Shown here one piece after another: positions 3,205-6,040 of a stretch of DNA of 64,000 nt (positions are counted from its first letter, which is position 1; each line of letters opens with the position of its first letter). Under the pieces are notes generated by a model. That model was not told where the DNA came from and did not search any database. It worked only from the letters and a program-made list of their open reading frames with translations. The stretch lies in sequence record MK327932.1; one strand, 5' to 3'. The stretch comes from Escherichia phage vB_EcoM_G2248. A program made the translations under genes and the position numbers.

Positions 3205-5028
3205 TTATGATTGCATCCAAATTTTGCGCTGATCTGCATCTTCACTATAGAGCAAATCGAATAGCTCTTTATAGTTTTCCGGTAACGTGATGATCTCCAT
3301 GACAGGATCGTTGATCACGCGATGATAGTCTGATTCTGTGAGCGATGCTAAACCTTTGATATATCGAATGTTGTAACCTTTGATATTATCTCGGTCGTTC
3401 TCGAAATCTTCTAGGTCATAATACCATCGAACATCATCACCTTTCTTTGGTTCCGCAATGATAATAGGTGTTTTGATAAACCGGATTCGTCCATCTTCGA
3501 ACAATTCAGGCCAACGTGCAAAGAAAGAGATCAGACTAGGTTTAATAGACCCGATCCCGTCAGTATCAGCGTCTGTCATAATCGCAATATTTTTGTATTG
3601 CATAACGTCCAGCGCATCAACACCAAATTGCAAACCAGTGATCGCCATGATGTTAAAAATTTCGGCGTTCTTAACGATCTTTGCCTCTGGTTGTTCCCAC
3701 GTTGTAAGAGTTTTACCTCGCAACGGGAAACCGCCATGTAAATCTTGATCACGTACAGAGATCAGATAGTTGATCGCGGAATCACCTTCCGTCAAAAACA
3801 GGGTAGTTTCTGCGTCAGTTCCAATAAGGTTAGCTTTAACGTGTTTTGCCACCTTAGCCCGTTTCGCTGCCTTTGCTGCCTTAGTCGCTGCCGCTTTATC
3901 TGCTGCCTCTTTGCGTGCCAGGACTACAGCAATAATAGGCATGATAATGTTTTCTTTCTTAGCAATGACTTTAGCCAGCTTTTTAAAATCCAGATCAATG
4001 TGTCGCTTGATATCACCAGTTGGGTTAGTCAAGCGTTCTTTTGTCTGTGAATCAAAACGAAGGTTAGGCAATTCACGAACAATAAGAATACAGGTCAATC
4101 CAGACTTAACCGCAGCTTTAGTAACATCAACCTTATATTCTTTCTTGATTCGTTTTACAATCTCTTCACAAAGATCATCTGTCACGTAGTCTACGTGTGT
4201 TCCCCCGTTTTTGGTAAACAGACCGTTAGCAAAGGATACTGATTTAAAACCTTCTCCCTCGACCGCCGGAACTAGGGCAAGTGAAAAGTTTTTATCTTCA
4301 ATGACAAACGGATCATCATTGTATAGTTTAGCATAATCCTTGAACTTGCTGGTTATCTTTTTGCCATTAAACTTAAACGTGATCTTAGGAAAGATTACAC
4401 TCAATGAATACATTCGATCGCAAATCACATCTGAAATTTCTTGTGACATGATCATACCTTCAAAATGATCGAAATCGGGGCAGAACGTAACCTTAGTTCC
4501 TTTCAGTTTTGACGGCTTAGATGACCAGCTAATATTTTCTGCACCATTGGTACATTGAACGGTCAGTTCATTCTCTCCGTCACACGTCACACCAGTAAAC
4601 CAGGACGAGAAAAATGATGTGAGCGCGCTTCCGATCCCATTCATACCCATAGTAACACGATTTGTATCATCAAAGTTAGACCCTGCTTTAGCTCGTGTCC
4701 ATGCAGCAACTGGTTGTGGAATCTGTTTCCCTTCTGGCGTCGTAACAATATGTTGCGGAATACCGCGACCATTATCTGTTACTGACACAATGTTATCTTT
4801 TATATCCACACTAATAACATTAGCGTACTCAAAATTAGTGCGGATCGCCTCGTCCACAGAATTGTCGATAATTTCATCAATAATTTTAACTAGACCGGGA
4901 ACGTATGAAACTTTGGTCCATTTTCCAAATAGGAAACGATTGTGTGATTCATAAGTCGTTGACCCGATGTACATTGAAGGTCTCTTAAGACAGTGAGCGC
5001 GATCATCCAACAGCAAAAATTCAGACAT
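3205..5028 (-). CDS. 39: DNA topoisomerase II large (ATPase) subunit, gp39 with gp60-equivalent C-terminus fused
   Basis: 607 aa; GyrB-type GHKL ATPase motifs (DNGRGIP, GLHG-like) and TOPRIM-like region; length matches T2-type uninterrupted 39 rather than split T4 39+60. Confidence 0.9.
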   Translation of the reverse strand: MSEFLLLDDRAHCLKRPSMYIGSTTYESHNRFLFGKWTKVSYVPGLVKIIDEIIDNSVDEAIRTNFEYANVISVDIKDNIVSVTDNGRGIPQHIVTTPEGKQIPQPVAAWTRAKAGSNFDDTNRVTMGMNGIGSALTSFFSSWFTGVTCDGENELTVQCTNGAENISWSSKPSKLKGTKVTFCPDFDHFEGMIMSQEISDVICDRMYSLSVIFPKITFKFNGKKITSKFKDYAKLYNDDPFVIEDKNFSLALVPAVEGEGFKSVSFANGLFTKNGGTHVDYVTDDLCEEIVKRIKKEYKVDVTKAAVKSGLTCILIVRELPNLRFDSQTKERLTNPTGDIKRHIDLDFKKLAKVIAKKENIIMPIIAVVLARKEAADKAAATKAAKAAKRAKVAKHVKANLIGTDAETTLFLTEGDSAINYLISVRDQDLHGGFPLRGKTLTTWEQPEAKIVKNAEIFNIMAITGLQFGVDALDVMQYKNIAIMTDADTDGIGSIKPSLISFFARWPELFEDGRIRFIKTPIIIAEPKKGDDVRWYYDLEDFENDRDNIKGYNIRYIKGLASLTESDYHRVINDPVMEIITLPENYKELFDLLYSEDADQRKIWMQS

Positions 5029-5034
5029 ATTATA

Positions 5035-5778
5035 TCATTCTCCGTCAGTTCGTTTCAGGTATTCCAATGCCGCATATAATCTTTGAGGATCGTCTTTGAA
5101 CATCCCTAATCCGGCATTACATTTTCCACAAAGAACACCTCTTATCTTACCAGTCTTATGATTATGGTCAAGATGTTTCCACTTTTGGCGTTTTCTCACG
5201 CCGCATCGTTCATTTATGAATTTTACACCGCATATCTCGCAATTGTCAACTCTGCCTAAAATTTCTAACGCTTCTCTTTTTGATATTTTTATACCATTTT
5301 CGGCATGATGATATGGCCTATCTAGTTCTCGCTCTCGCTTCTCAAACAATCGACACTCATCAGAACAATACTTTTGAGATACGTTTATTGCAACAAATGG
5401 TTTACCACATTTAGCGCATTCTCGTTCAATCTTTATGTTTTGTGCCTGGTCCAACGATGCGCAACGAGAACAGCAAAATTTATGATAGCCTTTAGAGTAT
5501 GTATGATAATTTACAGGATTTGGGCATCTTGCACATTTAACTATTCCTGTTATTCCGTGGCGCAATCTATAAACAGCCTCGTTATATGGTTGTTGATTTC
5601 TGAGACCTCCATTACAGAACTTAAACTCATTCCTTATAATCTGAAATTCAGCAGGATACAATTTTTCCATTTCTGGAATTTTATTTTCTTTAAAAAGATT
5701 TGAGTTTAGTCTATTTCCGCTTTTCGCCTCCAGAACATCAACAATAAACTTTTTGATGTTCACTTTTTCTCTCTCCAA
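5035..5778 (-). CDS. HNH endonuclease of the Endo VII type with N-terminal zinc-ribbon repeats (probable homing endonuclease)
   Basis: C-terminal HLDHNHKTGKIRGVLCGKCNAGLG matches the T4 endonuclease VII catalytic signature; several CxxC...CxxC ribbons upstream; locally AT-rich. Confidence 0.65.
   Translation of the reverse strand: MEREKVNIKKFIVDVLEAKSGNRLNSNLFKENKIPEMEKLYPAEFQIIRNEFKFCNGGLRNQQPYNEAVYRLRHGITGIVKCARCPNPVNYHTYSKGYHKFCCSRCASLDQAQNIKIERECAKCGKPFVAINVSQKYCSDECRLFEKRERELDRPYHHAENGIKISKREALEILGRVDNCEICGVKFINERCGVRKRQKWKHLDHNHKTGKIRGVLCGKCNAGLGMFKDDPQRLYAALEYLKRTDGE
5035..5778 (-). mobile_element. free-standing HNH homing-endonuclease-like gene inserted between topoisomerase and dexA
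   Basis: endonuclease signature plus compositional shift; no T4 counterpart at this position. Confidence 0.45.
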
Positions 5779-5866
5779 TACATAACATAACCATAACTTA
5801 CTGCAACCGCCACAAAGACGGCTGCAACAATCATATTAAAAATTGAGTGATTGTCAAGTATATGAC

Positions 5867-6040
5867 TCATGACACGCGCACATTTTTATCATAGTACCCG
5901 CCATTAATCCCGCGCGGGGCGGTTAATCCCTGTTTGCATTCTTTACCACATTCAGGGCATTCTGCCTTTTCACGTTCGGAAATTTTGCGGATTTTCTGAA
6001 ATTGACCGTGTTCTTCACAAGAATAATCATATAATGGCAT
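5867..6040 (-). CDS. small zinc-ribbon protein (FmdB-like CxxC...CPxCG)
   Basis: internal ATG at 6038-6040 (MPLYDYSCEEHGQF...CPECGK); track ORF extends further 5' over dexA. Confidence 0.45.
   Translation of the reverse strand: MPLYDYSCEEHGQFQKIRKISEREKAECPECGKECKQGLTAPRGINGGYYDKNVRVS

Follow-up and report, generated by a model that had tools for sequence, protein, structure and literature searches.

What does a reading frame for an endonuclease VII-like protein do directly in front of gene 39, the gene for the large subunit of topoisomerase II, in a phage that has its true endonuclease VII gene elsewhere? The question is raised by a window of 64,000 nt from Escherichia phage vB_EcoM_G2248 (MK327932.1), which is the whole stretch of DNA that was analysed and to whose positions the coordinates refer. 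We consider it probable that the frame, which codes for 242 amino acids (aa) on the minus strand, represents a free-standing homing endonuclease of the DHHRN family, most likely aimed at gene 39. The kind of gene is known, and for its homologue gp6 of phage VR7 the same prediction, a homing endonuclease, was published by Fang et al. (2018, PMC6083498); added here are a member from the genus Krischvirus, an architecture of linked alleles in two genera, junction fossils, and a repeated N-terminal module. An earlier sequence-only reading of this DNA had likewise suggested a homing endonuclease of the free-standing type, with a neighbouring essential gene of related phages as its possible target. 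Comparison with relatives has strengthened this proposal, as the gene is optional, is linked to a divergent tract of gene 39 and has a replicate in a second genus; its fixed site, purifying selection, intact catalytic residues, affinity to F-CphI and Hpy99I, and the lack of an intron point in the same direction.

The ~5.6-kb surroundings of the endonuclease frame matched 58 phage records at 90-99% identity, all of them RB49-like (Krischvirus), with vB_EcoM_G5211 as best match (99.4%), and judged by these matches the source phage of the window is an RB49-like Krischvirus itself. Only 12 of the 58 records carry the endonuclease gene; in the other 46, RB49 among them, the locus is 739 nt shorter. 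Presence in all relatives together with a normal composition, which would have spoken against a homing gene, is therefore not what we find. The gene is in fact AT-richer than its surroundings, as had been claimed, and the difference is real but modest: its GC content is 36.8% as compared with 40.2% in the window as a whole (z=-1.9; among 729-nt windows this is the 2.4th percentile), and that of its third codon positions (GC3) is 28% versus 36-40% in the neighbouring genes. Alignments with the insert-free relatives reveal a clean empty site. The segment missing there (Table 1) comprises the endonuclease frame, a spacer of 6 nt (TATAAT) in front of the ATG of gene 39, and the rewritten 3' end of a small upstream frame of 36 aa. 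No direct or inverted repeats were found to flank it at 5029/5780, and a transposon or insertion sequence was dismissed since neither terminal inverted repeats nor a target-site duplication border the insert; a group I intron or any other Rfam family gave no match at E<=1 between 2500 and 7500. The species to which the carriers are assigned, RB49 and gec3s, have type phages without the gene, and carriers and non-carriers are 97-99% identical elsewhere in the locus compared. Twenty further carrier loci were obtained from public assemblies (17 from metagenomes, three from GenBank genomes already in the set of 58); they were retrieved by exact protein match, and their frames are thus intact by construction. 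The exact 30-nt junction pattern had no match in the JGI metagenomes.

The gene does not come alone. In carriers the upstream flank is ~98-100% identical to that of insert-free relatives up to the junction, with 0-1 differences per 60 nt in the first 300 nt, and on the other side gene 39 is only 78% identical to that of RB49 over nt 1-720 and 99% identical beyond. Taken alone, nt 1-681 are 75% identical, the last diagnostic difference being at nt 681. When this tract was used as the only query, 13 records matched at 92% or more and all others at 79% or less, with none between. The 13 records with this version of the tract, which we term allele B as distinct from allele A, are the 12 carriers and phage G37-3, and the linkage of gene and allele is strong (Fisher p=1.5e-11, not corrected for relatedness). 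The further 20 carrier loci show the B state at 142-148 of 148 diagnostic sites, or at 47 of 48 on a short contig that covers only 204 nt of gene 39. Partial conversion tracts that might bracket a target were sought in these 20 loci; the full B tract was present as far as sequence reached, which is uninformative because A and B share no identical run longer than 29 nt within it. Carriers and non-carriers are intermingled in a tree of the backbone, for which the remainder of gene 39 and 940 nt upstream were used; in the tree of the tract they separate cleanly into two deep clades. The tract is presumed to be a cleavage-resistant segment of gene 39 that is co-converted with the endonuclease gene.

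The same arrangement is found in a second genus. Among Gaprivervirus phages, VR26, RZ, TH15 and VR7 have a full-length homologue immediately upstream of gene 39 that is 40-46% identical to the protein of the window, and VR25, VR20, VR5, SP18 and many others, indeed most Gaprivervirus records, are without it. The homologues VR7 gp6 (VR7ORF006c of vB_EcoM-VR7; 40% identity), VR26_006 and that of RZ share the complete architecture and the place in the genome; they differ from the gene studied here in belonging to another genus and subfamily and in having gp39.1, not the 36-aa frame, as upstream neighbour. VR26, whose enzyme is 45% identical, and the endonuclease-free VR25 are identical up to the endonuclease ATG, and their genes 39 are ~68% identical for ~1170 nt (compared with 681 nt here), then 92-100%. 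As far as the alignments tell, the combination of gene and divergent tract has recurred independently in this pair. Moreover, the site is kept over long evolutionary distances: in all 11 full-length homologue lineages whose context was read (34-76% identity; GenBank phages and the metagenome contigs L007, L008 and L021-L028, the contexts of P0010 and P0012 being left out), gene 39 starts within 0-7 nt of the endonuclease gene. On contig L023 gene 39 adjoins the endonuclease gene even though the upstream genes differ.

Two of these lineages retain fossils of a resident gene 39 start beside the endonuclease gene. At its beginning the endonuclease frame of L023 reads MSEFKILSERE, which copies the opening 11 codons of gene 39 on this contig (MSEFRVLSERE); 25 of 34 nt are identical in the copy and only 1 of the following 11, and the next-best match elsewhere in the locus reaches 20 of 34. 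On contig L007 a homologue of the 36-aa frame is followed by a gene-39-like start of 43 nt (MAEEFHLLTNKEHV) and then by the endonuclease frame. These fossils place the left junction inside gene 39 at about nt 34-43 (the R-E-H-V codons); the left junctions of Krischvirus and Gaprivervirus are found 13-19 nt upstream of the ATG of gene 39. All four fall within ~60 nt of the start of this gene, which suggests that it is here that breaks occur. An 8-nt match between the endonuclease start (GTGAACAT) and nt 29-36 of RB49 gene 39 was entertained as a third fossil and is not relied on, because all members of the family start with M-[ND]-[IL]-K and the sequence upstream is not gene-39-like. Likewise, the N-terminus of L021 (MWVSEKH) resembles the gene 39 start only weakly, and we found this unconvincing.

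The protein itself has the residues expected of an active nuclease. The sequence-only reading had recognised the catalytic core of endonuclease VII in a C-terminal motif, and this was borne out by the motif KHLDHNHKTGKIRGVLCGKCN and by a match to Pfam PF02945 (Endonuclease_7) at aa 178-242 of the 247-aa translation from an alternative TTG start (E=6e-16, 58.5 bits versus a cutoff of 23.6). Two alignments were used, a 12-sequence alignment of the full-length family and a 54-sequence set that also served as AlphaFold2 input. In both of them the zinc site of the nuclease domain (C175-x2-C178 and C212-x2-C215) and the residues D199, H200, H202, R208 and N216 are invariant. D199 and N216 would bind the metal and H200, H202 and R208 would lie in the active site, as they correspond to such residues in T4 endonuclease VII, Hpy99I and F-CphI. 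The AlphaFold2 model (mean pLDDT 89.5) matches the folds of Hpy99I and T4 endonuclease VII. The accompanying label HNH needs correction: the core does fall within the beta-beta-alpha-metal superfold, but its motif is DHHRN in the scheme of Fang et al. (2018, PMC6083498), who set the endonuclease VII motif apart from HNH with its central Asn, and no Pfam HNH family matched the protein at E<=0.1. The family named by these authors is defined by an upstream CX2-4C and a downstream CX2C, which jointly make up the zinc site, and by D-H-x-H, then R, then N right after CX2C (D40, H41, H43, R54 and N62 in endonuclease VII), and it is divided into a resolvase clade and an endonuclease clade with the motif at the C-terminus (PMC6083498). 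The protein of the window shows the complete series and has it at aa 175-216 of 242, as in the endonuclease clade. A search of IMG/VR returned no close relatives, only distant proteins with an endonuclease VII motif.

The nearest characterised enzyme is F-CphI of cyanophage S-PM2, the founding member of DHHRN, which has the same C-terminal residues (CX2C...DHxH...R...CX2C-N), is free-standing as well and lies next to its target psbA (PMC6083498). For F-CphI, site-specific cleavage by means of the residues of the endonuclease VII motif, in the form of sequential nicking, has been proven experimentally (Fang et al. 2018, PMC6083498). It differs in its length of 142 aa, in the lack of the N-terminal helical-plus-ribbon module described below, in working together with a group I intron in psbA where there is no intron here, and in target gene and host. 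The nuclease core of our protein shares 49% identity over 47 aa with F-CphI (E=6e-12) and 37% over 38 aa with gp49 of the same phage (E=3e-4); the match to Hpy99I (PDB 3fc3) has E=8e-10, that to endonuclease VII (1e7d) E=4.5e-3. These alignments place the protein nearer to F-CphI and Hpy99I than to gp49, the resolvase. Hpy99I differs in being a type II restriction enzyme from bacteria that is paired with a methylase (PMC6083498), and a significant fold match was confined to the nuclease core, the N-terminal domain of Hpy99I being unmatched to that of our protein.

These relationships bear on the idea that the gene encodes a second Holliday-junction resolvase, a paralogue of gp49. The Pfam Endonuclease_7 domain is common to both proteins, and several GenBank records call the product endonuclease VII. 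In T4 endonuclease VII, however, a junction resolvase annotated across the T4 group (for VR7 it is gp81 that bears a gp49-type resolvase annotation; Fang et al. 2018, PMC6083498), the motif stands at the N-terminus, and the dimerisation domain PF09124 comes after it. The true gp49 of the window, noted earlier as a separate and smaller protein and indeed only 157 aa long, has PF09124; the domain was not found in the endonuclease protein (Pfam, E<=0.1), whose motif is C-terminal and which is more similar to F-CphI and Hpy99I. Moreover, the gene is no core gene, being missing in 46 of the 58 Krischvirus and most Gaprivervirus records. A second resolvase is thus extremely improbable, and the labels "endonuclease VII" and "recombination endonuclease" attached to the gene are misleading. 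As a detail of the resolvase, gp49 of the window reads RGLLHSCCN where T4 has RGLLCNLCN, with a His at the position of the zinc ligand Cys58 and two cysteines adjacent.

Could the gene and the tract be no more than a passive mosaic patch, in which the gene and 681 nt of foreign gene 39 were acquired once, are inactive or no longer homing, and were spread by homologous recombination? Several observations weigh against a homing endonuclease. G37-3 has allele B without the endonuclease gene, which demonstrates that the two are separable and that the allele can stand alone. The tract ends at nt 681 in every carrier examined, which leaves no direct trace of repeated conversions, and its pattern is also compatible with a single old recombination that then spread by ordinary recombination. 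The outgroup carriers L008 (77.6% to B versus 74.0% to A) and L007 (67.6% versus 63.1%) are only slightly nearer to B; being so marginally closer, they identify no donor and do not set the direction of change between the alleles. In addition, the residue aligned with E65 of T4 endonuclease VII is a Leu, as in other members of the endonuclease clade, and the promoters and ribosome-binding sites assigned below are consensus matches only. On the other hand, the longest run identical in A and B inside the tract is 29 nt, and 80 identical nt start at nt 682. This should push a homologous crossover beyond nt 681, so that a fixed end-point is expected anyway and is uninformative on the number of transfer events. 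A passive patch also does not account for the state of the protein: dN/dS between alleles is 0.08-0.25, the frame is intact in all 10 carriers compared and every copy examined has all catalytic residues, a pattern of purifying selection. Nor would it predict that the same architecture of gene plus divergent tract arose independently in Gaprivervirus, or that the family keeps its site across 34-99% protein identity. We therefore regard a passive patch as unlikely. What looks like a decaying copy does occur: P0003 (180 aa, on a 753-nt ENA contig) is a close variant, 91% identical where aligned, from which an internal deletion has removed the second zinc ribbon and, in the zinc site of the nuclease, the first pair of cysteines.

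Purifying selection would also be expected if the protein were a site- or structure-specific nuclease serving the phage itself, by cutting competitor or host DNA or in recombination and repair, and not copying itself. The closest solved relative, Hpy99I, is a restriction enzyme, and marker exclusion by homing endonucleases blurs the line between selfish and useful genes (Edgell et al. 2010, PMC2988022). Yet the gene is dispensable in 46 of 58 relatives, and no methylase or other partner gene is adjacent. One fixed site by gene 39 and a linked divergent allele are what self-propagation predicts and are unexpected for a gene for defence or host shut-off. There is thus only a small chance that the gene mainly benefits the phage, and a self-propagating enzyme directed against gene 39 is the better explanation.

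The N-terminal part of the protein is presumably what guides this enzyme, with aa 1-150 (the N-terminal module and ribbon 2) reading the DNA and aa 175-242 cutting it. The two extra CxxC...CxxC ribbons noticed in the sequence are real and conserved across the full-length family: the 12-sequence alignment shows no change in the cysteines of ribbon 2, and in the 54-sequence alignment their conservation is 90% or more. Ribbon 2 gave only sub-threshold matches to Pfam families of the treble-clef/YacG type. The helical part (aa 1-76) and ribbon 1 together form one copy of a module of ~105 aa, which no Pfam family covers (window 5440-5763, aa 1-108). Searching 1.8 billion representative proteins with aa 1-108 returned the endonuclease family itself and large unnamed metagenomic proteins, in which the stretch corresponding to aa ~55-105 (E-x-[IV]-Y-R-[IL]...C-x2-C...G-Y-x2-[FY]-C-[SC]-x2-C) has 2-8 matched stretches per protein. 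Some of these module-bearing proteins (P0123-P0129, P0152; one of them on a 396-kb contig) carry DUF559, MTES_1575 or DUF7487, and some end in the nuclease-type domains DUF559 or MTES_1575. The recurrence of the module within large proteins suggests that it is a modular DNA-binding unit. A 22-nt stretch of ribbon 2 (ECAKCGK, 5401-5422) is 91% identical to one in the zinc ribbon of the neighbouring gp39.2 (ECPECGK, 5942-5963), probably due to convergence on the same peptide motif.

The ribbons have also to be considered in another light, since the gene invariably adjoins that for a GyrB-like protein and ribbon 1 gives sub-threshold Pfam matches to YacG (E=0.011-0.022) and a Foldseek match over 35 residues to gyrase-bound YacG (4tma; E=0.63, prob 0.9). 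YacG-like ribbons might bind the phage topoisomerase or the host gyrase, and modulation of a topoisomerase would then be the reason for the adjacency to gene 39. Such sub-threshold matches, however, are typical of any treble clef of the form C-x2-C...[FY]-C-S-x2-C, and the occurrence of the module in tandem in proteins with other nuclease domains points to DNA binding. A regulator would need neither an intact nuclease centre nor a linked divergent target allele, and we consider this function very improbable.

If the gene is a homing endonuclease directed against gene 39, the following course of events can be envisaged. In a mixed infection the enzyme would introduce a nick or cut within or beside the 5' part of gene 39 in the genome of an endonuclease-free relative. 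The ends would be resected and repaired by recombination with the carrier genome, and the endonuclease gene along with the 681-nt segment of gene 39 would thereby be copied into the recipient. The 22-25% divergence of this segment would render the carrier immune to its own enzyme and would force the right-hand crossover beyond nt 681, where long identical stretches begin. The junctions suggest a break near the very start of gene 39. The cleavage site may, however, be anywhere in its first ~680 nt; SegG and other free-standing enzymes can cut at a distance of hundreds of nt from their own genes (Edgell et al. 2010, PMC2988022).

Co-conversion, distant cleavage sites and promoterless cassettes are established for the free-standing endonucleases of T4 (Edgell et al. 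2010, PMC2988022), and SegF, SegG, MobE and MobA have the same lifestyle as proposed here, as promoterless cassettes between conserved genes that overlap the upstream reading frame (PMC2988022). As is proposed for the gene of the window, they are associated with co-conversion or marker exclusion of adjacent essential-gene sequence and may embed promoters for the downstream gene (PMC2988022); MobA is even located next to gene 39 and also targets it (Edgell et al. 2010, PMC2988022). The enzymes themselves are different, as the Seg and Mob proteins are of the GIY-YIG or the classical HNH type, the nuclease domain of the Mob proteins is N-terminal, and only the generic beta-beta-alpha-metal fold is related.

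One may go further and suppose that a site-faithful family has accompanied the 5' end of gene 39 in at least two named T4-like genera and in several unclassified lineages of T4-like phages from metagenomes, with strongly divergent replacements of 0.7-1.2 kb each time, thereby driving allelic replacement in an essential enzyme, that the fossils of L023 and L007 mark the break at codons ~11-14, and that the ~105-aa unit is an undescribed modular DNA-recognition domain. Taken as a whole, this wider scenario is tentative and has in our view less than an even chance of being correct. In any case, the gene adds a natural example to the small family of DHHRN homing endonucleases with its one characterised member (F-CphI), and the locus offers a ready experimental system, with near-identical carriers and non-carriers, two alleles of gene 39 and the natural recombinant G37-3.

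The coordinates of the locus are compiled in Table 1. On the minus strand the gene order is dda ... dexA, gp39.2, the 36-aa frame, the endonuclease frame and gene 39; the position "between topoisomerase and dexA" assigned earlier is thus right with respect to gene 39, which adjoins the gene directly, but on the other side the immediate neighbour is the 36-aa frame, and gp39.2 still intervenes before dexA. The endonuclease frame was listed from a TTG at 5778 (5035-5778, minus strand; 247 aa). GTG at 5763 is most likely the start, because a 729-nt coding sequence (CDS) is annotated in most relatives (with the exception of MIZ4), the N-termini of the homologues line up at M-[ND]-[IL]-K in the family alignment, the GTG overlaps the TGA stop of the 36-aa frame (GTGA), and a GGAG is found 9 nt 5' of it. 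In RB49, Phi1 and similar phages the 36-aa frame directly overlaps the start of gene 39 instead (ATGAGTGA). Just 5' of the endonuclease start, a GAGAGAGAAAAAG run (window 5764-5778) varies in length among carriers. In MIZ4 (L012, 2036-2869) the run has a 2-nt deletion, and the 36-aa frame is annotated as fused to the endonuclease in a CDS of 834 nt; in JK32 (L010, 2739-2870) and Skers (L011, 2739-2870) a 1-nt deletion prolongs the small frame across the endonuclease start.

Table 1. Features of the gene 39 locus and of the separate gp49 gene in the window
Feature	Position	Strand	Details
Gene 39, topoisomerase II large subunit (GyrB-like)	3205..5028	-	Pfam DNA_gyraseB, HATPase_c, Toprim, TOPRIM_C; RB49 annotation
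Divergent 5' tract of gene 39 (nt 1-681), allele B (MSEFLLLDDRAHCL...)	4348..5028	-	In every carrier
Segment missing from RB49-type relatives	5029..5780	-	752 nt here vs 13 nt there; junction alignments
Endonuclease ORF (open reading frame), GTG start	5035..5763	-	242 aa + stop
Helical N-terminal part, aa 1-76	5536..5763	-	AlphaFold2 helices at residues 3-69
Zinc ribbon 1, C77-x2-C80 ... C97-x3-C101	5461..5535	-	Motif GYHKFC(C/S)xxC; invariant in full-length family
Zinc ribbon 2, C116-x2-C119 ... C133-x3-C137	5353..5418	-	Motif KYCSxxC; cysteines conserved
Endo VII-motif (DHHRN) beta-beta-alpha-metal nuclease domain, aa 175-242	5038..5241	-	C-terminal
Sigma-70-like promoter match TTGACA-18-TAAAAT	5220..5249	-	11/12 consensus match, embedded in endonuclease ORF
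GGAG in last endonuclease codons (D-G-E-stop), candidate ribosome-binding site	5040..5043	-	11 nt before gene 39 ATG; sequence
36-aa hydrophobic ORF, RB49p006.1 homologue	5760..5870	-	phrog_25974, E=5e-23
Sigma-70-like promoter match TTGACA-16-TATGAT	5830..5857	-	11/12 consensus match; also in RB49, ~75 nt before gene 39
gp49 (Endo VII), 157 aa	39336..39809	-	PF02945 + PF09124 dimerisation domain (PF09124 E=1e-15)

The expression signals are compatible with the pattern of a promoterless cassette known from the seg and mob genes of T4 (Edgell et al. 2010, PMC2988022). The endonuclease gene would be transcribed, and gene 39 after it, from the resident promoter upstream, and its translation would be coupled to that of the 36-aa frame by way of the GTGA overlap. 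A second promoter match, within the endonuclease frame, might serve gene 39 on its own. All 10 carriers have it in identical form, yet it coincides with the conserved CEIC codons, and its conservation is therefore no independent evidence. The GGAG in the last endonuclease codons is probably a ribosome-binding site with which the cassette provides gene 39, and the C-terminal DGE that it forms part of is conserved among closer homologues. A predicted RNA hairpin at the 5' end of the frame (5733-5761; -9.8 kcal/mol, z=-0.59) was not significant. Within the 36-aa frame, 3' of the upstream promoter-like site, a terminator scan flagged a 14-bp stem-loop (5798-5830, minus strand), a sequence also found in RB49.

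Gene 39 appears to be a recurrent target of selfish nucleases in T4-like phages, as exemplified by MobA of T4, by a Krischvirus HNH_3 gene at its 3' end and by GIY-YIG and HNH genes in Klebsiella phages. The HNH_3 gene (Pfam HNH_3, 187 aa) is a second optional endonuclease gene, which is situated directly 3' of gene 39 in some relatives, at 699-1262 of the loci of G5211 (L006) and G37-3 (L003); the window is without it (gap at ~3200). Selfish nuclease genes of two unrelated kinds can thus border gene 39 on its two sides. At nt 1785-1818 of gene 39, clustered substitutions are present in the HNH_3 carriers G5211 and G37-3, and a similar cluster occurs in JEP8. In the Klebsiella phages Wolf_ER13, Nispero and KMI12, annotated HNH or GIY-YIG homing endonuclease genes are found beside the gene for the topoisomerase large subunit. 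On the dexA-distal side of the locus of FL04 (L015), more than 960 nt upstream of the junction, there is a sudden change to 32-44 mismatches with the window per 60 nt, which is another mosaic patch in the same neighbourhood.

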